Positions 11,734 through 48,555 of a stretch of DNA of 63,454 bases are shown piece by piece. Position 1 is the stretch's first letter. Every line of letters starts with the position of its first letter. The stretch spans positions 1 to 63,454 of the IMG/VR virus record IMGVR_UViG_3300046517_000593; one strand, 5' to 3'. The notes beneath the pieces are model-generated. The model worked only from the letters and a program-made list of their open reading frames with translations, did not search any database and was not told where the DNA came from. The DNA is from a virus. The translations under genes and the position numbers were made by a program.

Positions 11734-11735
11734 GC

Positions 11736-12180: not shown

Positions 12181-12226
12181 TTGAAAAGAAACCGTCCCGA
12201 AGACGGTCAAGAACTTCGGGACGGTT
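12181..12226 (-). terminator. rho-independent terminator (minus strand)
   Basis: 13-bp perfect stem AACCGTCCCGAAG / CTTCGGGACGGTT, followed on the minus strand by TCTTTTC. Confidence 0.75.
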
Positions 12227-12273
12227 GGTGTCCCCGGTAGGAGAAAGCGCATGTGAAAACTCCAAACCGGAAA

Positions 12274-19812: not shown

Positions 19813-19930
19813 AGCGTGTTTTTCAGCGGATGCGGCCCCCGCTGGTCGTTGAAACAACCCGTTCGTAGGATTACTGATGATACCAGGGTCAATATTCCAA
19901 TATGTAGGTCCATGTCCACATCACCTCCAT

Positions 19931-27793: not shown

Positions 27794-28720
27794 TTACGCA
27801 TTCGCGAGACGAATGAGCACGCTCGATACGGGCGGCTTAACTGTAACCGTCATCGAAATATTCGAGAAGGCAGTGCCGCCCACAGCATCAGTCGAATCAA
27901 GAATGATTTCACACAGAAAATCCGCATGGTCAATAACCACGTTCGGAGAATTTTGGTCAAACAAAACAATGCGGCCCATGCCTTGCCGACGAACATTAGT
28001 CAACGGAGTGATACTGAAAAAGCTTGCGGTGTCAGTCGATAGAATCGCAGCAGCGGTAACCACGGGAACCCTGTCGGCAGCTTGAGCAGTAAGGAATTTA
28101 ATGCGGCCGAGTTTCAAGTCCACCACAAAATCCGTTCCTTCAGACAAGGTCGCTACGGTCACCGTAGTCAGTGTTCGAACATGAAGACCGCTGAACAAAA
28201 TATCATACCAATTTCCGATGACTGCTGGTGTTGCCGTAAATCCCAACGTGTCCGCGCTCGCAGCAGTTTTAATCGTCTGAGTGAATGCGGTGCCAACGTC
28301 GCCACCAAATACAACCTGAAGTGTTTTCTTGTTCCATTCATCGCACTTCAATTTGTATTGCAGCTTCGACTGAGTAACCACGGTGGAGTCAAGCGTTCGC
28401 ACTCCACGATAGGCGCCAAGATGTTCTACCTTCTGTGTGTCAGTAGTCGGAGTCACGTCCACGATATCTCCAAAGTCCTGGTAGCCCAATGGAAGGGCAG
28501 TCGCGACACTCGTGGCATTCAGACAGAAACTAAATTCCGCCGTGGCCATGAGCAGCGCTGTGACGTTATGGCTAGGGTCAACCTGCGTCGAGACGTTCGC
28601 CATGTTCAGAACTTTTGCGCGCTTCCGACCAGTTAGCCACGCGCACGCACGTCCGAAGATGGCTACCATTCCGAGTATGAGGTTCATTGTAGACCCTTTC
28701 ATTTTGGTTTTTGTTATCAC
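27794..28720 (-). CDS. major tail (tube) protein candidate carrying a hydrophobic N-terminal leader
   Basis: Position upstream of the chaperones and a beta-rich 270-aa body. Possible starts: GTG 28720 (GTGA overlap), ATG 28687 (MNLILG...) and ATG 28603 (MANVST...). Confidence 0.5.
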   Translation of the reverse strand: MITKTKMKGSTMNLILGMVAIFGRACAWLTGRKRAKVLNMANVSTQVDPSHNVTALLMATAEFSFCLNATSVATALPLGYQDFGDIVDVTPTTDTQKVEHLGAYRGVRTLDSTVVTQSKLQYKLKCDEWNKKTLQVVFGGDVGTAFTQTIKTAASADTLGFTATPAVIGNWYDILFSGLHVRTLTTVTVATLSEGTDFVVDLKLGRIKFLTAQAADRVPVVTAAAILSTDTASFFSITPLTNVRRQGMGRIVLFDQNSPNVVIDHADFLCEIILDSTDAVGGTAFSNISMTVTVKPPVSSVLIRLANA

Positions 28721-31380: not shown

Positions 31381-31857
31381 TCAGAGCCCAGCTAAGGTTG
31401 TCGGAGTAGCATATCGCGTTGCTGGATTTATAAGGAAAGCGTTCGGTCCACTCAAAACCGGGAAGTTTGGGTCCGGGTCAATCGGCTGCTCGATACCCAA
31501 CTTACAAGCCGCAACATCCACCAACCATTTCTTCGCATCAGCTATGATTTGAATCTGCGCCTTCGTGAAATTCAAACCTGGAATGCGAGTCTGCATTTCT
31601 TCCAGCGTCAGCCAAATCAAAACCCACTTAGCACTCGGAGGCACCGAGTTGGTAGTCAAACTAATCTGATTCGCTGGACAAGTTGCGATAGCCGCACGTA
31701 TGCGAGAAGCCATCGCCGGCATTATCGGAATAAACGGGTCGCCTTGATTCGGGCTTACTGTGCTGAGAGCCGCTGTTCTTAGCGCTCCAATCTGAGCAGA
31801 AACTAAGTAAGGAAAAAGGTCATCGACGATAATTGAGGACCATGCTGTTCCACTCAT
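31381..31857 (-). CDS. head completion / connector candidate
   Basis: 158 aa. The call rests on position only. Confidence 0.45.
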   Translation of the reverse strand: MSGTAWSSIIVDDLFPYLVSAQIGALRTAALSTVSPNQGDPFIPIMPAMASRIRAAIATCPANQISLTTNSVPPSAKWVLIWLTLEEMQTRIPGLNFTKAQIQIIADAKKWLVDVAACKLGIEQPIDPDPNFPVLSGPNAFLINPATRYATPTTLAGL

Positions 31858-32205
31858 TTATTTTTGTTCAGCCTCTTCAGGCTTTTCCGTTTTTACTTTG
31901 CTCACCTCGGTTACTTGAACTTGCTGCACAACGCCAGGTAAAACTTCTCCCTGGGTCGTGGTCTGTCGAGTGATAATCGTTGTATCGTCATCCGGTGGCA
32001 AAGGAGATTGCTTCAGAAAAAGAAACGCTGACAACAAACCACTCGTGAGCAAGAGAACCCCAAGCGACTTCCAGTTAAGCAGGGGAACATCAATTCCGAT
32101 TCCATGGGCCCCAGCCATTCCAAGAAAGCTGCTTCCGGCACTCGCTGAAGCCGAAATAACTCCACCAACTAAACCGCGAAACCATTTCTTTTCAGATGTT
32201 CTCAT
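31858..32205 (-). CDS. membrane protein (two hydrophobic segments, charged tail)
   Basis: GLVGGVISASASAGSSFLGMAGA and LGVLLLTSGLLSAFLFL. Confidence 0.55.
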   Translation of the reverse strand: MRTSEKKWFRGLVGGVISASASAGSSFLGMAGAHGIGIDVPLLNWKSLGVLLLTSGLLSAFLFLKQSPLPPDDDTTIITRQTTTQGEVLPGVVQQVQVTEVSKVKTEKPEEAEQK

Positions 32206-32206
32206 T

Positions 32207-35200
32207 TCAATATCTCGTTCCGCGTTTAGCTGCCGATGCTGGAGTGCTGAAAGTTGTCCCTCCAGAAATTATTGGAGCAGGTCCGTAAACGGCTGTATAA
32301 GTAATTCCCGCTGCATTATTGGTGAACGTAGCACCCAAAGCAGTTGTGTAATCAACTCCGCTCCGCTGCCACTTCTGGAAGATTGCTCCGTCCTTCTCGG
32401 CCTGACTCACAGTCAAAGTTACAATCGTTCCGGTATCCCAAACGCGAGTCAAAGGAGTGCTACCACCCGAAGCTCCGGTATTATCAGCAGGAAAGATTGT
32501 CACCGGACACACTGTCGGAGCTACGGACGCAATATCAACCGAGTAAAAAGCATTCGTGTAAACCGCAGTCAGCGCGACATTGTGATTGTTCGTGTAAGTG
32601 ATAGCCGCACTCGTCGAATAGAGGACCCCGTCAAGCAACCACTCCAGAAAATCGAATCCGTTAACCACCGCTGGATCTTCGGCGGATAAACTCGTAACTC
32701 GACCATCAATATTTGTTCGAGAAAACGGAGTATCTCCAGAAGCCAACCCTCCGTTGTCGAGAGTTGAAATAGTGAACTTCACCGTCGAAGCGCCAACCGA
32801 ATCAAAAGCGGTGGTCCAGTTAACTGGCGGTGCAGGAGTTGTGTAAACCGCAGCCATACTCACATTCGAAACATTCGTAAACGTCGCGGCAGCGTTCGTC
32901 GTGTAGAGCACCCCATCTCGTTCCCATCGCGCAAAATTATTACCGCTTGCTGTTGATGGCGCAGTCAAAGTCGTAATCACGTTCAAAGCATTTGTCCTTG
33001 TGAAGCCGGTTGTCCCGTTTCCAAGGCCTCCAGCATCATTCGGGCTGCTCGTGATAGCTACTCCTGAACTCGGATTCTGGCTACTTACCGAAACGATGTA
33101 GGGATTATTCGGTGCGGCCGGAGTCGCGTAGAAAGCAACGAAACTTGAATTTGAAACATTGGTGTAAAGAATCCCAAAAGCATTCGTATCAGTCGAGTAA
33201 TCAGAACCATCACGAGTCCACTTCTGAAATACGTTCCCTCCAGCCGTTGACGGAGCAGTCAGAGTTATCACAATGCCGCTCACGTTAGTCCGAAGAAAGG
33301 TTGTGCTGCCATTCCCAAGCCCTGAGTTGTCATTCGGACTCACTGTAATCGAGACAGCAGAATTAGGGTTCACCGAGCCAATGGTTGTCACGAAATTAGC
33401 CGGAGGCTGAGTGTTAACTCCGTTCTTTTCCAAGACCCAAGCTCCGAACAAAGGAAAGCTTTTCGGCGAAAGAGCGCCACCAGTCTCGCCATACGGTATC
33501 GCTACTGTGTGCGCGCTCGCTTGCATATTCACGATAATCGTATTGCTGACCGTTGTCGTCATCGGCACCGCGTCAACGTAGTAGTCCTGAACATTACGCA
33601 CGAGCACGCTGGTATTTGTTCCCCACCCTAAAGCTGAAACATCAAGAGCCACAAAATTGTCGCCTCTCCAGTTATAGGAGAAAGCCTGCGCTCGATTCGC
33701 ATCGTAAGCATTATTGTAGACCCGAGTTAAGTTAGTCCCGGACGGTATCGAAAAACTGGAAGTGGAATTCGTATCGAAACCAGTAATAGCTTGCCAGCCT
33801 GCAAAGTTTGTGGGAGTTGCAGTCTCTATCCCGAACACCTTTCCGTTATTCGTGGTCACATAGGTATTGTAGTTCATCGTCCAAGGCAAAAACGTAATAG
33901 GTGGACGTGGAGTGTTCGGGTAGTAGTCCACGATTCGCTGAACTCCTCCGAGAGCCGGACTGATAATGTAATTGTTCGTGATGATTGCCGATTTCCAGCT
34001 ACTCAAATTGAACTGGCAGTTGTAAAAGTAGTTCCCGGTGCAAATCACATCATGATACGCGTTATTGTCTTGCTCGTAATAAAGTGAAAGGTCACAACTG
34101 AACCCGTAATTGTCAGTCACCTGGTCATCAACCAATCTGTCTGCCGAACCACCATTTCGACTCCCAAGCAAGACTCCTCCGTGGCCGGCTCCACGGTTTC
34201 CGAGATAAATATTTTCCTTGGTTCGATACTTCGAAAACTGCTCGCTCGATGAGCCATACATCTGAATGTTTTTGTCGTAAGGATTCAGGCAAATATTCCT
34301 CTGAATAGTAACGAATCCGGAAGCTGTATTGTGCTGAGTATAAAACCCATGGCCGTGAAGCTGTGGAGTTCCAACCCATCCATTATTGAAAGTTACATTC
34401 CCGTAAGCCTCAGTGGTGCTCGCCTGCTTCCAAAATGAAAGTCCGTTGGACAAATCATGAGACACGCAGTTCACGATTTTGCTTCGCGTCCCGTAAACGT
34501 ATGGACCTTCCGTTCTGAAATAGTCATTTGGAAAAGAAGGGTTCACTGTGTCGGCCGAAAATCTTGCGCTGGTCGAACTCGAAAAGAATTCCAAATCCTG
34601 CAAAATAATATCCGTTCCCTTCGTCGCATCTCCTGAATCTCCAATGATGAAGGCAGGCCTGGCAGCCGCATGGTAAGCGTAAATGCCGCTGTATTCCCCA
34701 CCGTCAATCCTCGCCTTTTCTCCCGGATACGAACGAATCGTTATCGGTGCAACTGAAGTGCCTGAAATTGTGCACTTGAAAATCCAACCCTCCAGACTTC
34801 CCGGAATTGAACCTTGAGGTAAATGTGTGTAAGCCGCAAACCCCGGAGAGCCTCTAAGGTAAATCGTGTCTCCAGGCTGCACGCTGGCTGAAGAGATAGC
34901 GGTCTGCAAATCCCACGGGCTTGCCAAAGTTCCAGCCCCACCAGCCGAGCCGGTTGGTGATGCGATCCAGACCCGGCCAAGGCAGGGGGAGACCGGTGGA
35001 GCTGTAAGTATATTTGCGTAAACCAGAATCGGCTGGCTTATCGCGTTCGTGCCAGCATGCGTGCCTATCACGGAAAGCACATACATGCCGGGCTGAATAT
35101 TCGTAATGACGAAGCTTGCCGTTCCTGTGGTCTTGTTCGCGATGTTAGTCGAGAAGTTGAACAGCGCTAAATTCGTCCAGCCAACGAAAAGGGAGTCATC

Positions 35201-36208
35201 AACCGTCACCGTGATATTTTGATTCGGCGCAACCTCAAGCTCAGTAGTCGGCGCAGTAATCGAAAGTCGATTGTCCCAACTCGCAAAAGCCCGCTCCACA
35301 TAAGCCGCGTCTTTGTCCGGACACCACCAGGCATTATTCGTCTTGTCCAGAGGGTAAGCGGAGTAATTCGTAATCAACGGAAACGGCACGTTATTAAATG
35401 CTGGCTGAATCAGCCACCCATCCGACTTGGCCATCCGATTCAATGTAAGCTTCCCAAATGATACGCATTGATTAGTCGGATACTCGTATTTTATGGCGCT
35501 CTTAAGCCAAGACATGCCCGGCGCGTGCTGATTCCATGTCTCGGCATGTGTTGTGCCGGTCTGAATCAAATCGAACGTCCCAAGTAATCCTGAGCGCACA
35601 TTGGTCGAAATAAAAATGTAGTTCGAGTTCGTTATCGAACCAACATCAGTCTTGCTCGCATCCATGTAAGTGGGAATCAATAAGCAGTCTGTCGGTGAAG
35701 CAGGAGGAGGGTCGCCTATGTTGAATCCTACGCCGCCAGAAATCAGAGCTAACCCCAGAGACATTGACGCGTTGGTCCTGGTAACGTCGTAGCCCCTAGT
35801 TGCTCCAGCGCTGAACCCATAGAACGCCCACGGGCAATTAGTAATTTCCGGACGATTGGCCTGAACGGCAAATGAAGCTAAAGCTCTCTGAAACACTTCA
35901 CCAGGTAATTGGGTGTTCGGTGCAAGCTCAGTCCCGATACTTCCCACGAATGCAAACTGATGCTCCGGTAGCCTCATCCAGTTAGCGAAATACTTCCGGA
36001 CATACTCACCTCGTGAATCGCCAGATGAACCATTGAAATTCACAAGCAGCCCTCGAACCAAATTGTAATCCGATGGTATCGCGAGACGGAAAGCACGGGT
36101 CGTGTTGTTACTCGAAAGAGTTTCCGAATAATCGTAGGTCACCCACGTATATGCTTGCGCAAACGTAGGAAACAACAGACTCAAAAAAAGAATCAGCCTT
36201 AGTGCCAT
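32207..36208 (-). CDS. exported multidomain protein: GxSxG esterase-like, right-handed beta-helix, four InlB-B-repeat-like units
   Basis: Start at the ATG at 36208. MALRLILFLSLLFPTFA-QA signal peptide. YGFSAGAT (GxSxG). SPWDLQTAISSASVQPGDTIYLRG (beta-helix N-cap). Four C-terminal units of about 90-96 aa with F..W..DG.....(T/Y)TN...(A/T)VY. Confidence 0.7.
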   Translation of the reverse strand: MALRLILFLSLLFPTFAQAYTWVTYDYSETLSSNNTTRAFRLAIPSDYNLVRGLLVNFNGSSGDSRGEYVRKYFANWMRLPEHQFAFVGSIGTELAPNTQLPGEVFQRALASFAVQANRPEITNCPWAFYGFSAGATRGYDVTRTNASMSLGLALISGGVGFNIGDPPPASPTDCLLIPTYMDASKTDVGSITNSNYIFISTNVRSGLLGTFDLIQTGTTHAETWNQHAPGMSWLKSAIKYEYPTNQCVSFGKLTLNRMAKSDGWLIQPAFNNVPFPLITNYSAYPLDKTNNAWWCPDKDAAYVERAFASWDNRLSITAPTTELEVAPNQNITVTVDDSLFVGWTNLALFNFSTNIANKTTGTASFVITNIQPGMYVLSVIGTHAGTNAISQPILVYANILTAPPVSPCLGRVWIASPTGSAGGAGTLASPWDLQTAISSASVQPGDTIYLRGSPGFAAYTHLPQGSIPGSLEGWIFKCTISGTSVAPITIRSYPGEKARIDGGEYSGIYAYHAAARPAFIIGDSGDATKGTDIILQDLEFFSSSTSARFSADTVNPSFPNDYFRTEGPYVYGTRSKIVNCVSHDLSNGLSFWKQASTTEAYGNVTFNNGWVGTPQLHGHGFYTQHNTASGFVTIQRNICLNPYDKNIQMYGSSSEQFSKYRTKENIYLGNRGAGHGGVLLGSRNGGSADRLVDDQVTDNYGFSCDLSLYYEQDNNAYHDVICTGNYFYNCQFNLSSWKSAIITNNYIISPALGGVQRIVDYYPNTPRPPITFLPWTMNYNTYVTTNNGKVFGIETATPTNFAGWQAITGFDTNSTSSFSIPSGTNLTRVYNNAYDANRAQAFSYNWRGDNFVALDVSALGWGTNTSVLVRNVQDYYVDAVPMTTTVSNTIIVNMQASAHTVAIPYGETGGALSPKSFPLFGAWVLEKNGVNTQPPANFVTTIGSVNPNSAVSITVSPNDNSGLGNGSTTFLRTNVSGIVITLTAPSTAGGNVFQKWTRDGSDYSTDTNAFGILYTNVSNSSFVAFYATPAAPNNPYIVSVSSQNPSSGVAITSSPNDAGGLGNGTTGFTRTNALNVITTLTAPSTASGNNFARWERDGVLYTTNAAATFTNVSNVSMAAVYTTPAPPVNWTTAFDSVGASTVKFTISTLDNGGLASGDTPFSRTNIDGRVTSLSAEDPAVVNGFDFLEWLLDGVLYSTSAAITYTNNHNVALTAVYTNAFYSVDIASVAPTVCPVTIFPADNTGASGGSTPLTRVWDTGTIVTLTVSQAEKDGAIFQKWQRSGVDYTTALGATFTNNAAGITYTAVYGPAPIISGGTTFSTPASAAKRGTRY

Positions 36209-36417
36209 GAGATAAAAGGATGCCCGATTAAACTCAACAAAATGTTCACGAGAACGACAACGGTCAGCAATACGAGAATCACCGTTCCTATTTTCATCCA
36301 AGGTTCAGGCGGAGCTATCTTATTCAAGGCCCACCAAAGCACCCAAACAATGATTCCCCAAATTACGAGCACGAAAAGCGTGTTCAATAAGGCTTCTCCG
36401 CTGATTAGCATCATCAT
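36199..36417 (-). CDS. small two-TM membrane protein
   Basis: LFVLVIWGIIVWVLWWAL and IGTVILVLLTVVVLVNILLSLI. Confidence 0.55.
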   Translation of the reverse strand: MMMLISGEALLNTLFVLVIWGIIVWVLWWALNKIAPPEPWMKIGTVILVLLTVVVLVNILLSLIGHPFISWH

Positions 36418-36426
36418 AAATTCCTT

Positions 36427-36951
36427 TCAGGGGCTGGCCCAAATCTCTCCTTGGACGTTCTTGAACCAAGGCCACGCACGAGCCGCATTCGTCGGCAATG
36501 GTCCGTTCGGTAGCTTTATTCCGCTCGGCCATGTCATCAGATTCGACGCTCCATTAAAAATCTCAATCACAAACTCATCTCCAACTGCCATCTGCCCCAT
36601 TGTGAAAACCGTTGGTTGATTAACAAATTTGAAATAGTCCATCCGCGTGCCCGGCATTGGGGTAGTCAGGATGTTATTCGTCAACTCCATGCTCGGACGC
36701 GGAACACTGTTTGTCGCTGTGATGAAAACGTAGTTCGTCACTGTGCTGAATACATAGTTGGTGACGTAAACATAATTCGTCCAGGTAACTACTACTCCAC
36801 CGTTAGCCAAATTGCTTGACGGAGGAAAGAACGGGCAATCAACCACAAACTGACCATTGATTAACTGAACTGGAGTGCGTGCAAATTGAAGCCCCTGCGC
36901 TTCGGCAAATCGACACGCTAGTAAATTGAGTATGACCAGAAATATTTTCAT
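36427..36951 (-). CDS. exported protein, unknown function
   Basis: MKIFLVILNLLACRFAEA-QG signal peptide. Confidence 0.6.
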   Translation of the reverse strand: MKIFLVILNLLACRFAEAQGLQFARTPVQLINGQFVVDCPFFPPSSNLANGGVVVTWTNYVYVTNYVFSTVTNYVFITATNSVPRPSMELTNNILTTPMPGTRMDYFKFVNQPTVFTMGQMAVGDEFVIEIFNGASNLMTWPSGIKLPNGPLPTNAARAWPWFKNVQGEIWASP

Positions 36952-37688
36952 GGACCTGTAATTACAACTTCTGCTTTTGCAACCGGACTGTTAGTGGGGT
37001 TACCGTGATGGCCTTTACCAGACGAATCAATAATCGAACCTACTCCCGTTATCGTAGCTCCATCGGTGAAGTCGTTAAGCTTCCAATAACACTCAGGCAA
37101 GATTGAACACATCAGAGGAAAGTCTGCCGTTCGAGAAAACGCGAGCTTATTGATATCCGCAGCCGTAACTACATTCGTATACATAGCCACTTCAGTTATG
37201 CGACCATCAAACGTGTTAGCAGTATTCAAATCATTCCCGATGGTGAGGGAATCCGCAGCATTGTCAGTTGGTGTTTGGCCGTTGGTCGTCGTGGCGTAAG
37301 AAGCCTCAACTCCGTTCACGTAAATATGGCAATTTGCAGCGTTCGTTGAACCATCCCAAGTCATAATGAGATGATTCCAAATATTGGTCACCCAAGCGTC
37401 ATTGCTCGTCAACCGCGTAAGCACCGTCCCACCTCCAACCGTAAAGCGCACCGCGTGGGGGGATGAGCACTTCAAAATATTCTGACCTTTACGCGCAAAG
37501 ATTCCTGCATTGGCTTCCCCATCGCTCGACGCAATGAACCAAGCCGAGTAAGTGACCGCACTGTTCTCCTTGTAGATAGCATCCGATAACGTCCCGAATC
37601 CCAAGATGTCATTCACACCATCAAACAGAACCGCTGCCCCAAGGCAGCGGCACAGTGAGACGATTAAAAATGTAATCGCTATCCTCAT
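36948..37688 (-). CDS. exported LamG (concanavalin-like) domain protein
   Basis: MRIAITFLIVSLCRCLGA leader. LFDGVNDIL...WNHLIMTWDG...IYVNG...FDGRITEVAMY. Confidence 0.65.
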   Translation of the reverse strand: MRIAITFLIVSLCRCLGAAVLFDGVNDILGFGTLSDAIYKENSAVTYSAWFIASSDGEANAGIFARKGQNILKCSSPHAVRFTVGGGTVLTRLTSNDAWVTNIWNHLIMTWDGSTNAANCHIYVNGVEASYATTTNGQTPTDNAADSLTIGNDLNTANTFDGRITEVAMYTNVVTAADINKLAFSRTADFPLMCSILPECYWKLNDFTDGATITGVGSIIDSSGKGHHGNPTNSPVAKAEVVITGP

Positions 37689-38740
37689 TTTCTGAAATAC
37701 TCCAACATCACATCACCCCTCACTCGAATGTCATTCAGCGCGGACGGTGTAGTGCTCGTAATCCTAATGGCTACTGTATCACCAGCAGCCATCGAGTCCA
37801 CGGTCGTCAGAGACATGACCAACACTTCCGGAAAATTGAGAGTCCCTGGAACAGCTTTCGAACCGGTATTCGCAGTATCGTAAGACTCTGTATCAGCCGC
37901 AAGCGCATCGCCAGGAGTTTGGGCCCAAACGCTGATTGAAAATGAAGCGCTATTGGTGATTGCCCCTGAACACGAAAATGGAATCCTTAATTGCGGACTG
38001 CTCCCATAATCTTGCGGTAGCGTGAACTGAAAATAAGCTGTCTCGTTCGTCGCAAATGCTAGTCTCTTCAGTCCCGTAGTCGAAACATACTCCAGTCTTG
38101 CCGGACTCGTTGTGGGTAGCGTTACTTGCGAAATAGGAAGCCTCACTTGGGCCATCGACCTACCTTCAAGGGAACCTTTAATCCTGCTCCCGTCTTGGAA
38201 GAAATGATAGATACCAATTATTCCAGATACCTGCTCAAGCGGTGGCTGAGTCGAAGTTCCGCTGAAGGTCCAGTAAACGGTATTCGTAATCGTGAGCGTG
38301 AAAGCGCCCTGATTCGTAATCGTGAGGTTAATCGGATGACCATTAGACCAATTCGTTATTCCGAGAGTCAAGTTACCGGCCATTGTCCCTGTCCACTCTG
38401 AAGCAAGTGAAGCGTCGATGTTAATCGTCCCCTGATTCGTTCCGATATCCAAAGTTGGGTAAATACTATTCCCGATGAAAAACACGTTCGTCAGAGACAC
38501 GTTCGGGCCGATGGCAACATTCGTATTACCGGTTCCGGTTTGCGTGAACTGGTCTGAAAAATTGTAGGTCGTCCCTCCAATCAAACCCAATCCAGATAAA
38601 CCTGATAGCGGCACAACATCGCCGTTGCCATTCACGTAACTTCCGGGGTCGCCCGTGAAAGGGATTATTTGTTGCTGAGCGTTAACCGAAAGAGCAATCA
38701 ACGCTAAAGCAAAAACCAGAAGTTTTTTTAAGTGGATCAT
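37685..38740 (-). CDS. exported beta-rich protein with jelly-roll-like C-terminus
   Basis: MIHLKKLLVFALALIALSVNA-QQQ signal peptide. The start codon lies in the conserved 22-nt cassette. Confidence 0.65.
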   Translation of the reverse strand: MIHLKKLLVFALALIALSVNAQQQIIPFTGDPGSYVNGNGDVVPLSGLSGLGLIGGTTYNFSDQFTQTGTGNTNVAIGPNVSLTNVFFIGNSIYPTLDIGTNQGTINIDASLASEWTGTMAGNLTLGITNWSNGHPINLTITNQGAFTLTITNTVYWTFSGTSTQPPLEQVSGIIGIYHFFQDGSRIKGSLEGRSMAQVRLPISQVTLPTTSPARLEYVSTTGLKRLAFATNETAYFQFTLPQDYGSSPQLRIPFSCSGAITNSASFSISVWAQTPGDALAADTESYDTANTGSKAVPGTLNFPEVLVMSLTTVDSMAAGDTVAIRITSTTPSALNDIRVRGDVMLEYFRK

Positions 38741-38747
38741 TTGATCC
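38734..38747 (+). repeat. 14-bp palindrome GGATCATTTGATCC, copy 3 of 5
   Basis: Within the 22-nt cassette 38730-38751. It carries the ATG of 37685..38740. Confidence 0.9.
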
Positions 38748-38749
38748 CT

Positions 38750-39184
38750 TTATTTCACGAGAGCGTGAATGACGATGTTAGAGAGACACCCGTTTGTCGT
38801 TGGATTCTCAATCGATGAAAGCCTGAGATACTGATACCCCTGACAACCGATATTCGTCCAGCCTGTTACCTCGGTGGTATCGTTCAGCGTAAGCGGAAAT
38901 CTGAATCGCGCATCCTTGTAATACATCGAATCATTGATGCTCACGTCAAACACTAGTGTAATCGTGCCACCTCCAGGCGTAGCCGCATTTGTCCACGCAA
39001 CTCCAGTCCCACGAAAGAACAAGCTCACCTTATTAGCCGCAGCGAGCACTGGAATACTCGAACTCGCCGTCGTGTTCGTTTGAACCGGTGGAACCTTATT
39101 CGTCGAAAGCGTCAGAAGCGTCACCGTCTGAGCCGACGCACTCAATCCGAAAACCATCAACAAAAAACTGAGTATGAATTTCAT
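38750..39184 (-). CDS. exported small protein
   Basis: MKFILSFLLMVFGLSASA-QT signal peptide. Confidence 0.6.
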   Translation of the reverse strand: MKFILSFLLMVFGLSASAQTVTLLTLSTNKVPPVQTNTTASSSIPVLAAANKVSLFFRGTGVAWTNAATPGGGTITLVFDVSINDSMYYKDARFRFPLTLNDTTEVTGWTNIGCQGYQYLRLSSIENPTTNGCLSNIVIHALVK

Positions 39185-39202: not shown

Positions 39203-39240
39203 GTCGGGGAAGTGAACTTTTACATTCAGGCTTCCCCGAC
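39203..39240. other. 10-bp perfect GC hairpin just downstream of the capsid gene
   Basis: GTCGGGGAAG-(18 nt)-CTTCCCCGAC. The T-run is only on the plus side, so on the minus mRNA it is a 3' stem-loop without a U-tract. Confidence 0.6.
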
Positions 39241-39264: not shown

Positions 39265-40242
39265 TTACGAAATAGTGAGCTGACGAACTCCGAGCGTGGA
39301 AGTCATTACCACGTCGCTATACATCTCAACAGTAATATCGATGTTCTTCATCGAAACTTGCTGTTCGTAAACACGCGTCTTGGTGCCGCCAATGGTTGCA
39401 GTCGTGAACCGCTTGATGTTGGACGGGTCGAACGGAGTTGCGTTCGGCTTCGTGAGGTAGACTAGCACCCGGTTGCCACCGAGAATTGAAGTCTTGGTTG
39501 AAGGGCCGGTCTGGTAATAGCTCCGAGCTACGTAGCCGCGTTGCAGACCACAGAACTGAGCAACCTGGTCAACCGCCTGACTTGCCGAAGCAAAGCCGCC
39601 TGCGGTATTCTGTGCGCGATGCGATACGATACGCTTGCTCCAAGCTGTAAGGTCATAAAGCACGTTGCTCGCTGGAACGCCCACGAGTGAATTGAATGTC
39701 ACAGCCTCGTTCATCACGTCTTGGTCCGGGTCTTTTCCGGCAGTCGTGTCCCATGTTTTAGCCGTGTTGGTCGCAGCCGCCGAAAGCAGCGTGATAGCGC
39801 GGCGAATTTCATTTCGCAGCAAGCGTTCCATCAAACGGGAAACAGTAAGCTCCCTCCAATTCGAGGACTGGTCCACATTGTCCATGTCCACTCGAACGGT
39901 CAGCCCCTTGTTCTTCGTGGTGCCGTTAGCCTTCGTGCTGGTGTATTCCACCCGCTTGAAGTCGGCTCCGATTGCTCGAATGTCGTCAGTCTCCGAAATG
40001 AAGGCCTCAATATTCGGGAAAGTCGCATATTCGAACCGGCGGCTCGTCGGAACTTCAGGTGCGAGAAAATCAAGCAACGCCTGAAGGTTCTCCTGGTCAG
40101 TCCAGCCGGTCGAGTAAGCCGTCAATGGCTCGCTGAAAAAAGCTTCAACGAATCGGCTGGAGGCATTCGCTGCGCATATCACGTCAGCAGCCTGTCTCCC
40201 CGTATCCTCCGGCATTTCATTTACAAAAGCGTGGTCATTCAT
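39265..40242 (-). CDS. major capsid protein (Mu gpT-like position)
   Basis: 325 aa from the ATG at 40242. It follows protease, scaffold and decoration genes. The A-rich leader is AAACAAAATAAAAAT. Confidence 0.6.
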   Translation of the reverse strand: MNDHAFVNEMPEDTGRQAADVICAANASSRFVEAFFSEPLTAYSTGWTDQENLQALLDFLAPEVPTSRRFEYATFPNIEAFISETDDIRAIGADFKRVEYTSTKANGTTKNKGLTVRVDMDNVDQSSNWRELTVSRLMERLLRNEIRRAITLLSAAATNTAKTWDTTAGKDPDQDVMNEAVTFNSLVGVPASNVLYDLTAWSKRIVSHRAQNTAGGFASASQAVDQVAQFCGLQRGYVARSYYQTGPSTKTSILGGNRVLVYLTKPNATPFDPSNIKRFTTATIGGTKTRVYEQQVSMKNIDITVEMYSDVVMTSTLGVRQLTIS

Positions 40243-40270: not shown

Positions 40271-40771
40271 TTACGCGAGAGGCGCAAACGCGAGGCACGG
40301 AGTAATTTCGATAACATCGCCAGTCGCCCCGGATGCCTTCAAGGCTTTCCCGACTACGTAACCAGTGGATACAGCCGTCTTAACAGTCCCGTCGCCGTTC
40401 GACTGAACAAAAGCGTCAACCGCTATCACCCCGGTAGCAATAACGCGCTGAGTGCCCTTTACCGCTCCAAGGACAGCGATACTAATCGGGTCTCCAAGCA
40501 AATCAGCCTGGTCTTGAGCGATGCCGATGATTTTATCTGTAGCGCCCGCACTGACGGCAACGTGGTTCTCATCGGAACCGGTCTTTACGAGGTGGTATCG
40601 CGTGATTGCCGCATCAGCCAAATAAGTAACATAACCATCACCATGAACACCCGCATTCGGAGAGTTCGCTGCATTGGCCATGTTGAGGACTTCTCCGCGC
40701 TTCCGGTAAGCAAGCCACGCGCAGGAGAAAATGGCCAGCAGGAGCACCGCTCCAAGCATTAGGTAATTCAT
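40271..40771 (-). CDS. head decoration protein (DUF2190-like) carrying a hydrophobic N-terminal leader
   Basis: Body YHLVKTG...IIGIAQD...GDPISIAVLGAVKG...GDGTVK...YVVGKALKASGATGDVIEI. The leader MNYLMLGAVLLLAIFSCAWLAYRKRGEVLN precedes MAN. Confidence 0.55.
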   Translation of the reverse strand: MNYLMLGAVLLLAIFSCAWLAYRKRGEVLNMANAANSPNAGVHGDGYVTYLADAAITRYHLVKTGSDENHVAVSAGATDKIIGIAQDQADLLGDPISIAVLGAVKGTQRVIATGVIAVDAFVQSNGDGTVKTAVSTGYVVGKALKASGATGDVIEITPCLAFAPLA

Positions 40772-41189: not shown

Positions 41190-41888
41190 TTACTTCTTGA
41201 GGTGTTCTGGTTGCTTCATCTGAGCCATGAGAGCTTTGCCTTCGTCGGTGGCCTCAACAGCCTTCCATGAACCAAGGTGGCCTTCGCCCGGGAACTTCTG
41301 CTTTCGCTCGTTCACAAGGTTAGTGAACTTTTTGGACGCGGCCGACGGCTCGTTCAGCCCCTTCACCTCATTACCGAGTCCCGCGCTTTTCTGAGCTGGT
41401 ATCTTCTTTTCCTTCTTATCTAATGAGGAAACTTCGGCATCAAAATCCTTGGCGTTAGCTAAAATTTGAATAGTCGGCTCCACATCCGCTCCGGTTAGCC
41501 GACCATCCAACACAGCCTGATTCACAATCAACTTAATGCGGGCCTGCCGCTCATTGGCAAACAACCCGTCAGCAGAAGTTTTGGCTGTAGTCAGTTCGGT
41601 GATTTTCACCTCGAAGCCGGTCTTCGCTTTTTCAGCATCTGATAGCTGAGTTTTCAACGTGGCATTCGCTGCCTCAAGCTCGTTGCATTTGGCCACCATC
41701 TTTTTCGAGGTATCATCGGCGGACACTGACATGGCCTTCTTGAATCGCTCGTTGACCATCGAATCGTCGGCGGTCGCCGGCAACCCAAGCAGGTCGTAAA
41801 TCATCTTTTTGAAATCGACCGCTTCGTTAGCCATCTGAATAACTGCATTGAAACCGAATAAGGCTTTAAGAATTTTTTTCATTTTCAT
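41190..41888 (-). CDS. scaffolding protein candidate
   Basis: 232 aa, helical and Lys/Ala/Glu-rich, between the protease and the capsid genes. Confidence 0.5.
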   Translation of the reverse strand: MKMKKILKALFGFNAVIQMANEAVDFKKMIYDLLGLPATADDSMVNERFKKAMSVSADDTSKKMVAKCNELEAANATLKTQLSDAEKAKTGFEVKITELTTAKTSADGLFANERQARIKLIVNQAVLDGRLTGADVEPTIQILANAKDFDAEVSSLDKKEKKIPAQKSAGLGNEVKGLNEPSAASKKFTNLVNERKQKFPGEGHLGSWKAVEATDEGKALMAQMKQPEHLKK

Positions 41889-41895
41889 TTTTGGT

Positions 41896-42960
41896 TTAAG
41901 GCAGCACTGCTGCCAACTTTTCTCCGTGTGTCTTAGGATTCCTCATCTGAGCCATCGCCAAATCCCTAGAATACGGAGAAGTCGTATTTTGAATGTCGGA
42001 CATACCTGCCTGAGCCTCAGGATGAAACTGACTGTGAGGCGAATTGAGAATGGCTTGAAAATGACCACGAGCATCAGCATAAGCTTGCTGCGCCTGTTCA
42101 GGATTAGTATTCAAATCGTAGGCGCGAGCCGTTCGAAGTGAAGCATTCCCATTATCCAATCTTTTCTGAGCATCCTCAGCCGTCATCTCTGCTGACTCTT
42201 GAGTCGGTGATTCGGTCGCCTCCTCCGCCGGGTCTTCTCCGGCTTCACTCATTACGTTTCCGAAATGACGAAGCATGGCAACGGTCAAAAACCGCTTCTC
42301 GTTCACGCTCTGGTCAGCCGCGATTTTACCGCAGATTTTCTTAGCGCTATCCTCGTCATGTCCGCCTCCGGAATCAGTCTGCATGTAAGCTACGCAGCCA
42401 TCAAAACCACCTTTGAAACTTCCATCCGAATTTTTATAATCGGACTCATTTGCCGTGGTTACTGGCGGAACTGGTATGTTTGGCTCATTCGTGAAACCGA
42501 CCGACTTGAGCTTGAACGGACGCCAAACACCTTTTGCATTCGGGTCTTCCTTCAGGAACCAGTTTACCGAATGACCATGAAAAGCTTCATCTGAAATCAG
42601 CTTCTCGCCCTCTGCCCCAAATCTCACCCCGGCCCAAAGACCATCGTTACGAGCTTCGAGCGTCTTAATGCGCCCGTAAGCTTTTCCGTCCTTGTAACGG
42701 TCGCTGAAAGCAGGGTGGTCGGGATGACCGATAAAAAATGGTAGACCAATCGTTTTGTGCGCGATGTTCGTGATAGAATTGAAGCTCTGAACAATGTTAT
42801 CAGCATCTTGTTTTTGGATCCTTTGAAGACCTTGCTGATTCGGCCAATCACCGAACGGACTGAGCATCACCCAGCGAAGCTTAGTCGCCTCGTTAGGAGC
42901 CGAAAACTCATTTACAAACAGGATTGAAGGAAACTCGATTGTGCCAATCACGACGCACAA
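41896..42960 (-). CDS. Mu gpI-like head maturation protease
   Basis: RWVMLSPFGDWPN...DADNIVQSFN...GLPFFIGHPDH...AYGRIKTLEARNDGLWAGVRF resembles Mu-like prophage I proteins. The start is uncertain (TTG at 42960 or GTG at 42951). Confidence 0.55.
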   Translation of the reverse strand: MCVVIGTIEFPSILFVNEFSAPNEATKLRWVMLSPFGDWPNQQGLQRIQKQDADNIVQSFNSITNIAHKTIGLPFFIGHPDHPAFSDRYKDGKAYGRIKTLEARNDGLWAGVRFGAEGEKLISDEAFHGHSVNWFLKEDPNAKGVWRPFKLKSVGFTNEPNIPVPPVTTANESDYKNSDGSFKGGFDGCVAYMQTDSGGGHDEDSAKKICGKIAADQSVNEKRFLTVAMLRHFGNVMSEAGEDPAEEATESPTQESAEMTAEDAQKRLDNGNASLRTARAYDLNTNPEQAQQAYADARGHFQAILNSPHSQFHPEAQAGMSDIQNTTSPYSRDLAMAQMRNPKTHGEKLAAVLP

Positions 42961-42989: not shown

Positions 42990-43160
42990 TTACCGTGTGC
43001 GCACACCAGTTTTACGCTGCTGCTCATTGGCCGCTTCTCTAAGCTTTCGCTTGGCCCACTCGGACATATTTTCCCCACCGGCCTCGGCAATAATTCGCTT
43101 ATCAGTCGGAGTAACTCGAATGAAAATTCTCTCGCTGGCCTTTTCCGGGTTGTGGCTCAT
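42990..43160 (-). CDS. ribbon-helix-helix (MobC/CopG-like) small protein
   Basis: The ATG at 43160 overlaps the upstream TGA. IFIRVTPTDKRIIAEAGGENMSEWAKRKLREA. Confidence 0.5.
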   Translation of the reverse strand: MSHNPEKASERIFIRVTPTDKRIIAEAGGENMSEWAKRKLREAANEQQRKTGVRTR

Positions 43161-45013
43161 CTGAAATTTCCCTTCCCATTTAATCTTACTGATCCACCCC
43201 AATTATTATTTCCAATTTGAACAGTTGTTCCCTGAAGAGGATGAGGGTAGGTGTAAGGAGTATAATATAGAGTCCAAGTATTAGGAGCAGTAGCTTTATA
43301 CAACACTCCATCAGCCCCGTTTTGCTGGACTCCATAAGGATTAGATGTGCTAGTATTCCATGAACCTTGATCTGTTGCAAAATATCCTACTCCCGTCGTG
43401 CAAGTGGCAGGACGATTGGCGATGGTGCCCCATCCAGTCCCAGAGGTGCCGTCAAATGGACTCGTCGGAGATGTCTGAATCCCGCTCGCCTGCGCGTAGT
43501 AATCTCGGTCGGAAGCAATCCTGTTGGTGTCCGCATTGCTATATGCCGTTACTGTAGGCGTGGCCGTATTGTTGAACACGTAAACAGGCTCCAGCGCTTG
43601 ATTCGGCCAGGCAATCGTTCCCGTAGTGGAATTTATCTTTGTTGGATGACTCCCGGTTAACAAATCGCCGCGGCCACGCCCGGTCTGATCGATTGCCGGA
43701 TATCCGTAAGCAGTCGTATTTCCGTCCCATGCGGACCCGACAAAATAAGCGGCTCCAGTAAGGGGAGCTCCGGTATGCCCGCCATTCTGCAAGGTGATTG
43801 AAGTTGTTGAAATTACTGACGCAATCCCCGCAGTTGGACCAGGGGAGGGTTCCTGATCGAGCACCCCGACGGCGGTCATACCGACGATGTATATCATTGT
43901 CCCTGCCGGCCACAGCAAGCTGAAATCCGTGCCGCCTGTTTTGGTGACAGCGGTCGCCGTCACAGATACCGTTCCGGTCGCTACCGGCACAGGTCCAGCA
44001 TAACCCCATCCCGTTGGATTCGGGCTTTGCGGATACGTGATCGAGTTCTTGCGAACCGTGTTCAGGGTGATGAGAGATTGAATGGCTCCAGTCTCGGCGG
44101 TGTTACCCCATACCAATGAGGTCCCACCTTGGGTATCTGCCATCGCCCTGGCATTGCGTTCGGTTATTGATTCATTGGCTGCCAGTGCGTAAAGATTTCC
44201 GTAAGTTTCCGCCGCCCGTCCACCTCGGTCATTTCCGGCATGGCCGGTGGCGTGAATTTCTCCACCGGAGCAAAAATAAAGCGTATTGAATCGACAAACG
44301 GCCTTCCCTCCTCCGGTCATATCCCAGACGCGAGACGGTATATCTCCAAAGACCAAAGATGCCGATCCACCGTTGATAATGTTATCCTCCAGATAGAGGA
44401 AGTCAGACGTTCCAAATCCTGTGTCTGCCGCCCACGTCTCGTCACCGACTAAACTGGAGCCGCTCCTGTAAATATAGAGCGATGAATTTCCTGCGTGCGA
44501 CATGATGCAGTGATCCACGACGCCAGTGAGATTAAAGAAGACTGGCATGTGTGTTCCGCTCGTAAGCGCAGGACTGTAGATCTGGTTATCGAACCTGCAA
44601 TGGTCCACGCGAATTTGTCCGGTGTTGGTTGGCCCAAGAAATCGGATGACGCCTTCCTCGTCTTTGATGGCTCCATTTCCTCCGATCACGCTTATTCCAG
44701 AGAAGCGAAAAGTCCCGGAGGATGCTAATGTGATGTCGAAAATAGGGCTATTCCCTGGATTATTGTCCACGATTACCGTTTGGTCGCCGCCGCCCGTGGC
44801 CGTTGTGCCGGCTCCGATAACAGTAACATTGCTAGGAGCCGTCCATGCAATCCCGTAGGTCCAATTAGAAAGTCCTGCCGGAATGGAAAGAGTATCTCCC
44901 GCCGAAACCAGTTGCATCGCGTTGGACACCGCCACGGGTCCGGGATTGACCGCAATGATTGTTGCGGCCTTTGCAATGGAGCAAGAGAGCAGTAAAGCCA
45001 GAAACAATCTCAT
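43157..45013 (-). CDS. exported parallel beta-helix-like protein (polysaccharide lyase/hydrolase type)
   Basis: MRLFLALLLSCSIAKA-A signal peptide. Repetitive G/N/T-rich rungs. C-terminal YTPYTYPHPL. Confidence 0.6.
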   Translation of the reverse strand: MRLFLALLLSCSIAKAATIIAVNPGPVAVSNAMQLVSAGDTLSIPAGLSNWTYGIAWTAPSNVTVIGAGTTATGGGDQTVIVDNNPGNSPIFDITLASSGTFRFSGISVIGGNGAIKDEEGVIRFLGPTNTGQIRVDHCRFDNQIYSPALTSGTHMPVFFNLTGVVDHCIMSHAGNSSLYIYRSGSSLVGDETWAADTGFGTSDFLYLEDNIINGGSASLVFGDIPSRVWDMTGGGKAVCRFNTLYFCSGGEIHATGHAGNDRGGRAAETYGNLYALAANESITERNARAMADTQGGTSLVWGNTAETGAIQSLITLNTVRKNSITYPQSPNPTGWGYAGPVPVATGTVSVTATAVTKTGGTDFSLLWPAGTMIYIVGMTAVGVLDQEPSPGPTAGIASVISTTSITLQNGGHTGAPLTGAAYFVGSAWDGNTTAYGYPAIDQTGRGRGDLLTGSHPTKINSTTGTIAWPNQALEPVYVFNNTATPTVTAYSNADTNRIASDRDYYAQASGIQTSPTSPFDGTSGTGWGTIANRPATCTTGVGYFATDQGSWNTSTSNPYGVQQNGADGVLYKATAPNTWTLYYTPYTYPHPLQGTTVQIGNNNWGGSVRLNGKGNFR

Positions 45014-45813
45014 TGGGCACCCGCCGAATTGAGGGTTGAAATTTGACCGCTGGAAAGCTCGGTATTGTAGATTCGAATATCGTCAAGCTCTCCCCAGAAG
45101 GGTTGGCCAAGTCCTGCAAAAACTCCAATCCTGACCGCTTCATCGTGCAACAACGTGTTAGACAATGTTCCCGATGGGGCAACAGCGGGCGTCCCGGCAT
45201 TAACGTAAATTTTCACTCCGCTCGCAGCCGAGCTTCCACTGTAAGTGCCCGCGATGAAATACCACGTGCCCGCGATGATCGAGCCTCCTCCAGTTGCGGC
45301 GATCAATGCGTTTCCGGAAGAGTCAACGAGCGCAAATTTTAGCTGCGTGTTGTCGGTGTCGGCGGCAAAATTGTAACCCTGCACATTCCCGAAACTGTAG
45401 TTTTTTCCAAGAATGAAATGGCCACCAGAGGCTGACGCATTGACCTTGATCCAGAAAGTAATGCTAAACGTGTTCGTCCGTTCAAAGTCGAAATTACTCT
45501 CGTTGGCGACCGTGATCAGATCGTCGGTGCCGTCAAAAGTAAGGTCTCCATTGCTGTTTGGTCCAGTCCCCCACGCGGGACTCCCGGTGAGCGTTCCAGC
45601 GTTTCCATTCCCTGTGCTATCAGTCGCATTTGTTCCGCTGGCGTCGTTTAGCTTCCACCAACCGACGAGGGTTGTATCTCCAGTATTTGAAGCCGGAAAA
45701 CGCACGTCTTTGCGCCCTTGTAAGAGGACTTGCGGGAAAGCAATTCGCGGAGCCAGAACGAAAGGCACAAGCATCCCATTCCGAAGAATGAATTTGCGGC
45801 GGTTCATCACCAT
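45010..45813 (-). CDS. Tat-signal LamG-domain protein
   Basis: M(V)MNRRKFILRNGMLVPFVLAPRIAF (twin-arginine RRxFI). WWKLNDASG...DLTFDGTDD...TFWIK...WYFIAGTY...IYVNG...ELDDIRIYN. Confidence 0.65.
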   Translation of the reverse strand: MVMNRRKFILRNGMLVPFVLAPRIAFPQVLLQGRKDVRFPASNTGDTTLVGWWKLNDASGTNATDSTGNGNAGTLTGSPAWGTGPNSNGDLTFDGTDDLITVANESNFDFERTNTFSITFWIKVNASASGGHFILGKNYSFGNVQGYNFAADTDNTQLKFALVDSSGNALIAATGGGSIIAGTWYFIAGTYSGSSAASGVKIYVNAGTPAVAPSGTLSNTLLHDEAVRIGVFAGLGQPFWGELDDIRIYNTELSSGQISTLNSAGAQ

Positions 45814-47906: not shown

Positions 47907-48190
47907 TGAATTGGTGTGTCATTCAGCAAATCGGCTCCTGTCGCATCATTCAATAAATGTGCTCCAGTGGCATCATGCAGTAAGAAATTTGTTACGGTTA
48001 TTCCCGGAACATCGATTACCGTTCCTCCTATTTTAGTAATACCCGGTGCGCCTATTTTAAGCGTCGTGTCTGTCGTGAAAAGAATCACCTGAGCCACAAG
48101 ATTGAATGCAACCGTTGCAACTAATATGAATGCAATAATCCCTTTCAAACTATCAATAGCAACGAGCCCGAATCCAAAAATCTTTTTCAT
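47903..48190 (-). CDS. small membrane-anchored protein with a 9-aa tandem repeat
   Basis: The ATG at 48190 overlaps the upstream TGA. IIAFILVATVAFNLVAQVILF. C-terminal HDATGAHLLNDATGADLLND. Confidence 0.5.
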   Translation of the reverse strand: MKKIFGFGLVAIDSLKGIIAFILVATVAFNLVAQVILFTTDTTLKIGAPGITKIGGTVIDVPGITVTNFLLHDATGAHLLNDATGADLLNDTPIQ

Positions 48191-48555
48191 GGAATTAATT
48201 CGCACGAAACTCCATCGCTCGCCGTCTCAACATCAATCCACCAGTTTGTCGGACAAACTCCATTCTGCTGGTCGGTGATAATGATTCTCTCGCCCGGCTG
48301 AATATAAAATCCACCCGCATCATTAGTGGGATTCTGCTGCAACCATACCTTGCTCGTGTTGGTTGTCCTAGCCGATTTGTTTCCAGTAAACACAATCGTC
48401 CTGTAATGCGTATCGTTATTCGTCGAAAGCTGCTCAGGCACCGAGGAAGAGGAGACAGTTTTGATTAGCTCTGGCAATGGGAATATAGCCATTAAGTTGA
48501 ATGTCACAATCATCACAACAATGACCATCGCAAACTGACTCAAGAACTTTTTCAT
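48187..48555 (-). CDS. signal-anchored small protein
   Basis: MKKFLSQFAMVIVVMIVTFNLMAIFPL. Confidence 0.55.
   Translation of the reverse strand: MKKFLSQFAMVIVVMIVTFNLMAIFPLPELIKTVSSSSVPEQLSTNNDTHYRTIVFTGNKSARTTNTSKVWLQQNPTNDAGGFYIQPGERIIITDQQNGVCPTNWWIDVETASDGVSCELIP

Follow-up and report, generated by a model that had tools for sequence, protein, structure and literature searches.

The phage genome IMGVR_UViG_3300046517_000593 (63,454 nucleotides (nt), analysed over its whole length and here called the window) carries seven contiguous genes, cassette B, directly behind its major capsid gene, and a second block, cassette A, further upstream in the same head operon. We propose that the two cassettes form a mobile, late-expressed and Sec-exported module of glycan-binding and glycan-degrading proteins, aimed at the polysaccharide of the host envelope. 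From the sequence, we give this proposal about an even chance of being correct.

An earlier reading of the same sequence (the original prediction) had placed seven minus-strand open reading frames (ORFs) for exported or membrane proteins here. All seven exist exactly where they were predicted (Table 1). The JGI gene calls agree with all seven products, including the ATG at 36208 for the protein of 1333 amino acids (aa), and label each of them "hypothetical protein". The position of the block between the capsid gene and conserved head-completion genes was borne out, as was the hairpin after the capsid gene; no T-run was found 3' of this hairpin. Leaders were seen as predicted on five products, with putative cleavage sites (slash) at MKFILSFLLMVFGLSASA/QT in the 144-aa protein, MIHLKKLLVFALALIALSVNA/QQQ in the 351-aa protein, MRIAITFLIVSLCRCLGAA/VL in the 246-aa protein, MKIFLVILNLLACRFAEA/QG in the 174-aa protein and MALRLILFLSLLFPTFA/QA in the 1333-aa protein. 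The remaining products (72 and 115 aa) each contained the two hydrophobic segments ascribed to them.

Leaders were judged by one fixed hydrophobicity rule plus inspection. All five had a basic n-region, a hydrophobic core of 9–12 residues and small residues at positions −3 and −1, in agreement with Sec export and cleavage by signal peptidase I. The predicted cleavage was directly followed by Gln in four of them, the exception being the 246-aa protein. Leaders were present in 10 of the 12 ORFs of cassettes A and B compared with 9 of 86 elsewhere, four of these nine lying in the putative lysis region. This clustering is not due to chance (Fisher p=3.6e-7). The cassettes occupy 12.7 kb of 63.3 kb, about 20% of the genome, in keeping with the predicted fifth. 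Between the window and the related locus L002 (loci are numbered with an L throughout), the leaders were 18–45% identical whereas the mature parts were 49–80% identical (39% and 80% for the 144-aa protein), with the architecture and the A/Q site kept. A faster-changing leader of constant architecture is the behaviour of working signal peptides. Sorting by a type IX secretion system (T9SS), by PEP-CTERM or as lipoproteins was rejected, as the cassette B proteins had no NCBIfam match, no lipobox and no C-terminal transmembrane segment. In the literature, no signal peptides were reported among the 52 genes of a cultured verrucophage (PMC4642752), and only 5% of prophage carbohydrate-active enzymes (CAZymes) had one (PMC13507307).

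Adjoining cassette B genes either abut or share 4 or 10 nt. The region showed no excess of sigma-70-like promoters or intrinsic terminators, by a consensus that may not be the host's, and the hairpin behind the capsid gene is without a T-run. Together these observations support, without proving it, co-transcription with the late genes.

An alignment search with the capsid protein recovered 72 metagenomic and 36 genomic loci; the related loci found number 110. The gap between the capsid gene and the gene for the 158-aa head-completion protein was at most 209 nt in 31 of 37 related head modules (median 106 nt), and the portal-to-protease gap had a median of 249 nt in 57 relatives. In the window, these gaps measure 7.4 kb and 5.6 kb, respectively. 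Since the capsid and 158-aa genes are adjacent in 31 of the 37 relatives, cassette B is, judged by gene order, an insertion into the head module. Among the capsid-family relatives it is shared by L002 only (capsid 81% identical), the insert at this junction being 7.4–7.5 kb in both. The orthologues in L002 are 75% (144 aa), 64% (351 aa), 48% (174 aa), 74% (1333 aa) and 72% (115 aa) identical; L002 also encodes the 72-aa protein, has an 85-aa ORF in place of the LamG gene, and contains an additional gene for a 203-aa protein. Its cassette A is smaller, with only a 117-aa orthologue of the 122-aa protein and a different, leader-bearing pectate-lyase-like protein. L001 and most other relatives are without both cassettes. 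At the same junctions, unrelated leader-bearing genes were found in distant relatives, namely L016 (229-, 1201- and 581-aa products, the second a beta-helix), L029 (156 and 351 aa), L111 (128 and 116 aa) and L028 (226 aa), and Pfam gave no match for the inserted proteins of these four loci.

The largest product of cassette B, the 1333-aa protein, had been predicted to combine an esterase with a beta-helix, which was upheld by sequence motif, by AlphaFold2 (AF2) modelling with Foldseek and by the family profile. Its N-terminal 400 residues have stand-alone homologues of about 405 aa without any Pfam family, and two of the esterase homologues adjoin glycoside hydrolase (GH) genes in bacterial contigs (GH39/GH16 and GH42). 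A GFSAG nucleophile elbow is present, and Ser133 and His221 are invariant in 17 sequences. The AF2 model of the N-terminal part consisted of an alpha/beta-hydrolase followed by an Ig-like sandwich (predicted local distance difference test (pLDDT) 84.8), with carboxyl and feruloyl esterases and PETase as top Foldseek matches (E~1e-8, probability 1.0). By predicted fold and conserved Ser and His, the N-terminal domain is an alpha/beta-hydrolase serine esterase.

The beta-helix had 69 homologues, most of them annotated with PF22842 (Pel9A-like beta-helix). This family is carried by homologues at 27–50% identity and annotated on the L002 orthologue; the window segment alone gave no Pfam match at E<=1. 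The family profile matched the polysaccharide lyase family 9 (PL9) rhamnogalacturonan lyase 5olq (E=2e-8); its further matches were PL6 lyases and a GH120 xylosidase. In 41 of the 69 homologues, the conserved beginning of the beta-helix (YxxPxG...SPWDL) has a leader immediately before it, and by this pattern the family is one of secreted enzymes. The nearest homologues lie on contigs of 8–55 kb with phage genes wherever neighbourhoods were read (L003–L005, L116–L121). This phage clade shares the leader, kept at 40–53% identity, the repeats and the Arg-rich C-terminus, and the beta-helix begins right after the leader; in the shorter phage homologues P0003 and P0009, no N-terminal particle-attachment domain was found between leader and catalytic domain. 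The 1333-aa protein further departs from a tailspike in having a leader and in being encoded between capsid and head-completion genes. The Arg-rich tails of the enzymes P0002–P0015 and of L116–L121 include KRGTRY, RRGARQ, RRRLSRF, AARRFF, RRRGTRL and GRRRRP, often with a terminal aromatic residue and with no transmembrane segment before the tail.

The 351-aa protein, with 554 relatives by HMMER, is made up of two widespread modules. The C-terminal module of about 150 aa is likewise C-terminal in proteins matching PHROG families of tail fibres, tailspikes and depolymerases of extracellular polysaccharide (EPS), and also exists as stand-alone proteins of 160 aa. The N-domain was found in leader-bearing proteins of L003, L120, L121 and L123. 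In the Protein Data Bank, nothing was found with the profile of the C-terminal module, and phmmer with the 1333-, 618-, 699- and 246-aa proteins gave nothing useful; scans of IMG/VR with the 351-aa and 144-aa alignments recovered no relatives. An AF2 model of the 351-aa protein from a two-sequence alignment reached a pLDDT of only 42.

The LamG assignment of the 246-aa protein proved sound (PF13385, E=3e-21, 76.6 bits against a cut-off of 27.6). Its residues 201–235 repeat the LamG-opening motif (WKLND..DSSG.G..G) after the domain and match residues 68–95 of the cassette A LamG protein, which could reflect a truncated second domain or a circular permutation. No known family was matched by the 144- and 174-aa proteins. 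Three genes downstream of the beta-helix gene, L003/L117 encode a homologue of the 72-aa protein (65% identical), and L059 has a weak homologue of the 115-aa protein.

The original prediction had also seen cassette B as a mirror of cassette A, with a module duplicated between the C-termini of the 351-aa and 699-aa proteins. The resemblance of these C-termini is real but weak. A fibre-tip hidden Markov model of 138 sequences matched residues 564–677 of the 699-aa protein (E=0.015), its sole other match in the genome, and hhalign of the 351-aa module against the 699-aa protein gave E=8e-4 over 143 columns, with common F..P..Y and AAGD...R motifs. We regard a remote homology of the two C-termini as probable. 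Recent duplication between the cassettes was rejected, as all-against-all blastp within the genome yielded only the LamG pair, at 20% identity. No significant similarity was detected between the small proteins of 122 and 144 aa (hhalign, 27 columns aligned), nor between the 618-aa protein and the beta-helix profile (15 columns), and the beta-helix predicted for the former is unconfirmed. Of the supposed parallel, the LamG and fibre-tip pairs are thus remotely similar and the other pairs show nothing; it is better explained by two instalments of one mobile gene pool.

Gene pairs of the cassettes recur in other phages at differing late-operon junctions. In L120, a single block codes for a 122-like protein (40% identical), a 714-aa protein, a 482-aa protein with the 351-aa N-domain, a small protein placed like the 174-aa protein, and a beta-helix enzyme, all of them leader-bearing. 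In L020, between tail tube and tape measure, a fibre-tip protein precedes a LamG protein, both with leaders, in the same order as 699 then 283 aa and 351 then 246 aa. A 174-family protein precedes the beta-helix enzyme in the window, L002, L118 (35% identical) and L005 (weak); leader-bearing small proteins hold this position in L120 and L121, matched by position and a C-terminal motif only. In L118 the block again stands directly after a capsid gene, an unrelated one, and in L003, L116 and L119 it is found where the structural region ends, in the company of small membrane proteins.

Some further features of these loci were observed. The gene at 11856–12158, which adjoins the putative lysis region of the window, codes for a 100-aa protein; in six other phage loci, the gene next to the beta-helix enzyme on its upstream side has a product 35–44% identical to this protein. 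A 127-aa lipoprotein (13070–13453) is 42% identical to one in L121. This suggests that the enzyme module once adjoined the lysis-side region. Large proteins with signal-peptide-like leaders stand in consecutive runs in L121 (five, 126–12445), L005 (six, 400–11962) and L003 (three of the large proteins, 139–11968) and include BACON-repeat proteins of 1374–1759 aa. In the 283-aa LamG protein of cassette A, residues 19–45 form a twin-arginine-like sequence (MNRRKFILRNG...) and no classical Sec leader, which suggests export by twin-arginine translocation (Tat). Its NCBIfam match to TafC, a Tat-fimbriae subunit, covered the LamG domain only and was far below the cut-off.

If the cassettes are such an exported module, their genes would share transcripts, and in part translational coupling, with those for the capsid and for head completion. 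Of the seven cassette B products, five would cross the cytoplasmic membrane by Sec and be cut by signal peptidase I, mostly exposing Gln, and the two small two-helix proteins would remain in the membrane. The 1333-aa enzyme would de-esterify a polysaccharide with its serine esterase and cleave the polymer with its PL9-like beta-helix, held on its substrate by the four C-terminal repeats. Its partners outside the cytoplasm would be the lectin-like LamG protein, the fibre-tip-type binding protein and the two small partners. The likely target would be a polymer of the host itself (capsule, EPS or O-antigen-like), reached from the periplasmic side and, once the cell has lysed, also from outside; the combination of esterase, lyase and repeats, as predicted, matches an attack on an acylated acidic polysaccharide. 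The progeny would thereby be freed from polysaccharide and kept from re-adsorbing to infected cells and debris, neighbouring cells would be stripped, and superinfection may be limited.

The leaders make the strongest case for real export. They are canonical, have changed more quickly than the mature parts without losing their form or cleavage context, and persist in the phage clade of an enzyme family with secreted cellular members; in a virion component put together in the cytoplasm, a leader of this kind would be expected to disappear. A benefit to the phage is favoured because the genes appear to be expressed late in a phage without recognised lysogeny genes. A cellular precedent is the bacterial WceF, a tailspike-like enzyme exported by Tat that trims EPS (PMC7949094).

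Several points weigh against the proposed export module. Export, timing, substrate and benefit are all inferred. The route of periplasmic proteins across the outer membrane before lysis is unexplained. The 351-aa and 699-aa proteins end in a module that virion tail fibres typically carry, and it is not obvious what a free exported fibre would do. Conservation of cassette B against L002 (64–75%) is in the range of the core virion proteins (60–88%), which is, on these identities, unusual for dispensable accessory genes. Finally, a hydrophobic N-terminus alone does not exclude a role in the virion, because the decoration-like and major tail proteins have one, without a basic n-region and with basic residues after the helix.

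This last type of leader was seen more widely. The decoration-like and major tail proteins share it in frame (...CAWL..RKR..VLNM/AN; 40679–40771 and 28601–28687, both on the minus strand), and it appears to be translated because the differences are mostly synonymous third-position changes. In 44 of 70 family loci (L001–L113), a similar transmembrane-like leader stands before the decoration-like homologue. In Akkermansia-type prophages, the protease and the decoration-like protein both have a leader followed by REECHNA.

The fibre-type module, the core-like conservation and the leaders on true structural proteins would also suit virion appendages, that is, head or tail fibres and a virion-borne depolymerase whose N-termini are not export signals, or which are exported and join the particles only once lysis has breached the inner membrane. 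The 699-aa protein matches tail-fibre PHROGs, beta-helix enzymes are the classical tailspikes, the block follows the capsid gene directly in three unrelated head modules (window/L002, L016 and L118), and in the stretches fetched the large fibre-like proteins of L003, L005 and L121 carry leaders. We nevertheless consider virion appendages unlikely. The cassette leaders are of the canonical cleavable Sec type and are retained in homologues of 40–50% identity, where cytoplasmic assembly would disfavour them, and P0003 and P0009 have no attachment domain behind theirs. The window already encodes a leaderless J-like tip protein and a leaderless fibre, and most relatives build virions without any cassette genes.

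Somewhat less likely again, in our estimate, are auxiliary metabolic or conversion genes, with the CAZymes and lectins secreted for host foraging or surface remodelling, as has been put forward for prophage CAZymes. The esterase homologues in bacterial glycoside-hydrolase loci, the wide occurrence of the beta-helix family as secreted bacterial enzymes, and capsid relatives that are prophages of Verrucomicrobiota, a polysaccharide-degrading phylum, would all accord with such a use, for which signal-peptide prophage CAZymes, though a small share, are documented (PMC13507307). Against it, the proteins tested included no recognisable integrase or repressor, and the genes are coupled within the late head operon with no promoter or terminator signal of their own; because they are embedded there, their expression would precede lysis. 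The closest beta-helix homologues form a clade, with shared repeats and Arg-rich tail, on contigs that have phage genes wherever they were read, and the companion fibre-tip proteins are not metabolic.

An intermediate possibility, to which we attach a still smaller probability, is that the fibre-, lectin- and depolymerase-like proteins are exported, mature in the periplasm (cleavage, pyroglutamate, disulfides) and dock on capsids or tails once the inner membrane is breached. If true, extracytoplasmic docking would explain leader-bearing blocks of fibre type beside the capsid gene in Verrucomicrobiota-associated phages.

Least probable is an accessory role in lysis or egress, with an exported esterase/lyase breaking an outer polysaccharide or esterified envelope layer in an extra lysis step, in the manner of LysB, beside holin-like 72- and 115-aa proteins: the topology of these two fits holins, no classical endolysin was recognised among the ORFs searched or nearby, and in L003, L116, L117 and L119 the beta-helix gene has small membrane proteins and lipoproteins around it and adjoins the homologue of 11856–12158, but the holin match of the 72-aa protein is weak (phrog_263, E=0.018), the lectin and fibre-tip proteins are left unexplained, and a separate cluster of membrane proteins and lipoproteins exists at 12.3–14.1 kb.

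Phages are known to carry leader-bearing accessory genes in late operons, such as the lambda morons lom and bor. Mycobacteriophages use the esterase LysB as an extra lysis enzyme, a single-domain protein without a signal peptide that is encoded in the lysis cassette. LysB is similar, by description only, as a phage alpha/beta-hydrolase serine esterase aimed at an outer envelope layer, whereas the enzyme described here is a leader-bearing, multidomain protein of 1333 aa encoded outside the lysis cassette. Depolymerases of phages are usually viewed as virion components, and exported proteins that phages encode as the products of single conversion genes. The tailspike and capsule depolymerases of phages, right-handed beta-helices of which some carry esterase domains, resemble the 1333-aa enzyme in joining a beta-helix with a deacylating esterase and carbohydrate-binding repeats and in being encoded in the late region; they differ from it, as it has a signal peptide, no N-terminal particle-binding domain in its phage clade and a gene in the head module, with separate leaderless fibres elsewhere.

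In phages of P. gingivalis, genes with signal peptides obeying the Q-rule have been described (PMC10367356). These and the morons have in common with cassette B an insertion at junctions between conserved structural genes and products with Sec leaders that are predicted to reach the envelope, often cut before Gln. In contrast to morons, cassette B comprises seven contiguous coupled genes over 7.3 kb with no detectable promoters or terminators of their own, codes for large enzymes in a genome where no lysogeny genes were found, and has gene pairs that recur across unrelated phages. Among exported beta-helix enzymes that cleave glycans, Pantoea stewartii WceF (PMC7949094) and the PL9 enzyme 5olq are comparable, whereas the present enzyme is phage-encoded, fused to an esterase and four repeats, and carries a Sec rather than a Tat signal, its catalysis being predicted. 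Prophage CAZymes and viral auxiliary metabolic genes (PMC13507307) likewise have CAZyme-like domains and homologues in bacterial glycan-degradation loci; here, unlike there, a whole block is leader-bearing, lies inside the head operon and includes fibre-tip and LamG companions. Phage depolymerases, CAZymes of phages and phage genes with leaders (PMC10367356) each have precedents. A multi-gene module of exported lectin, fibre-tip and enzyme proteins in a head operon, with recurring pairs, was not described in the literature searched.

Table 1. Features of the head region of IMGVR_UViG_3300046517_000593, in order of transcription (slash, putative cleavage site)
Feature	Position	Strand	Remarks
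Terminase	51473-52948		
Mu-type portal	48559-50310		PF06074, E=1.5e-51
Cassette A	43157-48555	(-)	Between portal and prohead protease; 122-aa leader/anchor protein, 100-aa membrane protein, 699-aa protein, 283-aa LamG protein, 618-aa leader-bearing protein
699-aa protein	cassette A		Leader-bearing, fibre-like; same C-terminal module as 351-aa protein (remote homology probable); matches tail-fibre PHROGs
283-aa LamG protein	45010-45861	(-)	PF13385, 77.9 bits; RRKFIL motif
Prohead protease and scaffold	41190-42960		
Decoration/scaffold-like protein	40271-40771		phrog_673
Major capsid protein	39265-40242	(-)	Bounds cassette B on the upstream side; matches phrog_1005 (major head protein, E=2e-8)
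Hairpin	39203-39240	(-)	Between capsid gene and first cassette B gene; -32.8 kcal/mol, z=-5.2
Cassette B	31858-39184	(-)	Seven genes, 7.3 kb
144-aa protein	38750-39184	(-)	Sec-type leader SASA/QT; two Cys in mature part
351-aa protein	37685-38740	(-)	Leader SVNA/QQQ; N-domain aa ~45-195; C-terminal module aa 196-351
246-aa LamG protein	36948-37688	(-)	Leader; concanavalin-like lectin/glucanase
174-aa protein	36427-36951	(-)	Leader FAEA/QG; VTNYV repeats
72-aa protein	36199-36417	(-)	Two transmembrane helices; 10-nt overlap with start of next gene
1333-aa multidomain enzyme (predicted)	32207-36208	(-)	
 leader, aa 1-17	36158-36208	(-)	
 serine esterase, aa ~18-312	35273-36157	(-)	
 Ig-like domain, aa ~313-400	35009-35272	(-)	
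 PL9/Pel9A-like beta-helix, aa ~420-900	33509-34951	(-)	
 four repeats of ~95 aa, aa ~925-1310	32279-33436	(-)	Motif F-x-K-W-x-R-D-G
 Arg-rich tail	32210-32233	(-)	KRGTRY
115-aa protein	31858-32205	(-)	Two hydrophobic segments, charged C-terminal tail; last gene of block
158-aa head-completion protein	31381-31857	(-)	Conserved; downstream boundary of cassette B

An exact terminal direct repeat of 127 bp (1–127 and 63328–63454) is present. The contig is a complete phage genome, either terminally redundant or circularly permuted, with about 63.3 kb of sequence once the repeat is counted a single time. Nearly every gene is on the minus strand. Along the direction of transcription, the terminase, portal, cassette A, protease/scaffold, decoration-like and capsid genes are followed by cassette B, head completion and tail genes. 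The capsid protein probably starts at Met26 of the longest ORF (325 aa in the JGI call). Downstream of the 158-aa gene are a 95-aa gene and a 305-aa minor-head-like gene, and further downstream the major tail protein, the tape measure, the tail-fibre set without leaders (the J-like 924-aa tip protein and a 476-aa fibre) and the membrane protein and lipoprotein cluster. Replication genes code for an SNF2 helicase, a primase-DnaB fusion and a DnaD-like protein. No transposase, integrase or endolysin could be recognised in the ORFs scanned, despite the Mu-type portal. Within the tail block, between tail assembly and NlpC/P60 genes, lies a gene of the endonuclease family (phrog_452, E=2e-26; 19462–19857, minus strand), and an ORF at 9723–9995 (minus strand) consists almost wholly of Arg/Ser/Gly/Trp repeats (SRSGSRSWSGSRSW...) in the most GC-rich and most GC-skewed part of the genome.

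No match for the capsid protein was found among GenBank phages (tblastn). Its genomic relatives, mostly head modules of Verrucomicrobiota prophages, belong to Verrucomicrobiota lineages in 33 of 36 cases, with one in Kiritimatiellae and one in Methylomirabilota. Because the capsid relatives are nearly all from Verrucomicrobiota, this phylum is the best inference for the host and probably the correct one. The recurrent Ala-x-Ala/Gln context had been put forward as a clue to the host lineage, but it did not discriminate: 13 of 51 leader-like ORFs in Verrucomicrobiota loci share it. Gln after the cleavage site is the Bacteroidetes 'Q-rule' (PMC5837995), and in the window it occupied position +1 in five of seven clear leaders (four of six in L002). 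A Bacteroidota host was rejected as a decisive conclusion from this rule, given the capsid relatives and the occurrence of AXA/Q in Verrucomicrobiota loci.

Lectin, fibre-tip and enzyme proteins with leaders take up a fifth of this phage genome and are integrated in its head operon, and pairs of related genes move among otherwise unrelated uncultivated phages. The cassettes supply candidate enzymes, among them an esterase fused to a PL9-like lyase, putatively for the surface glycans of Verrucomicrobiota. If the proteins are exported as predicted, the phage would condition the polysaccharide envelope of its host from within before lysis, a strategy with little experimental precedent.

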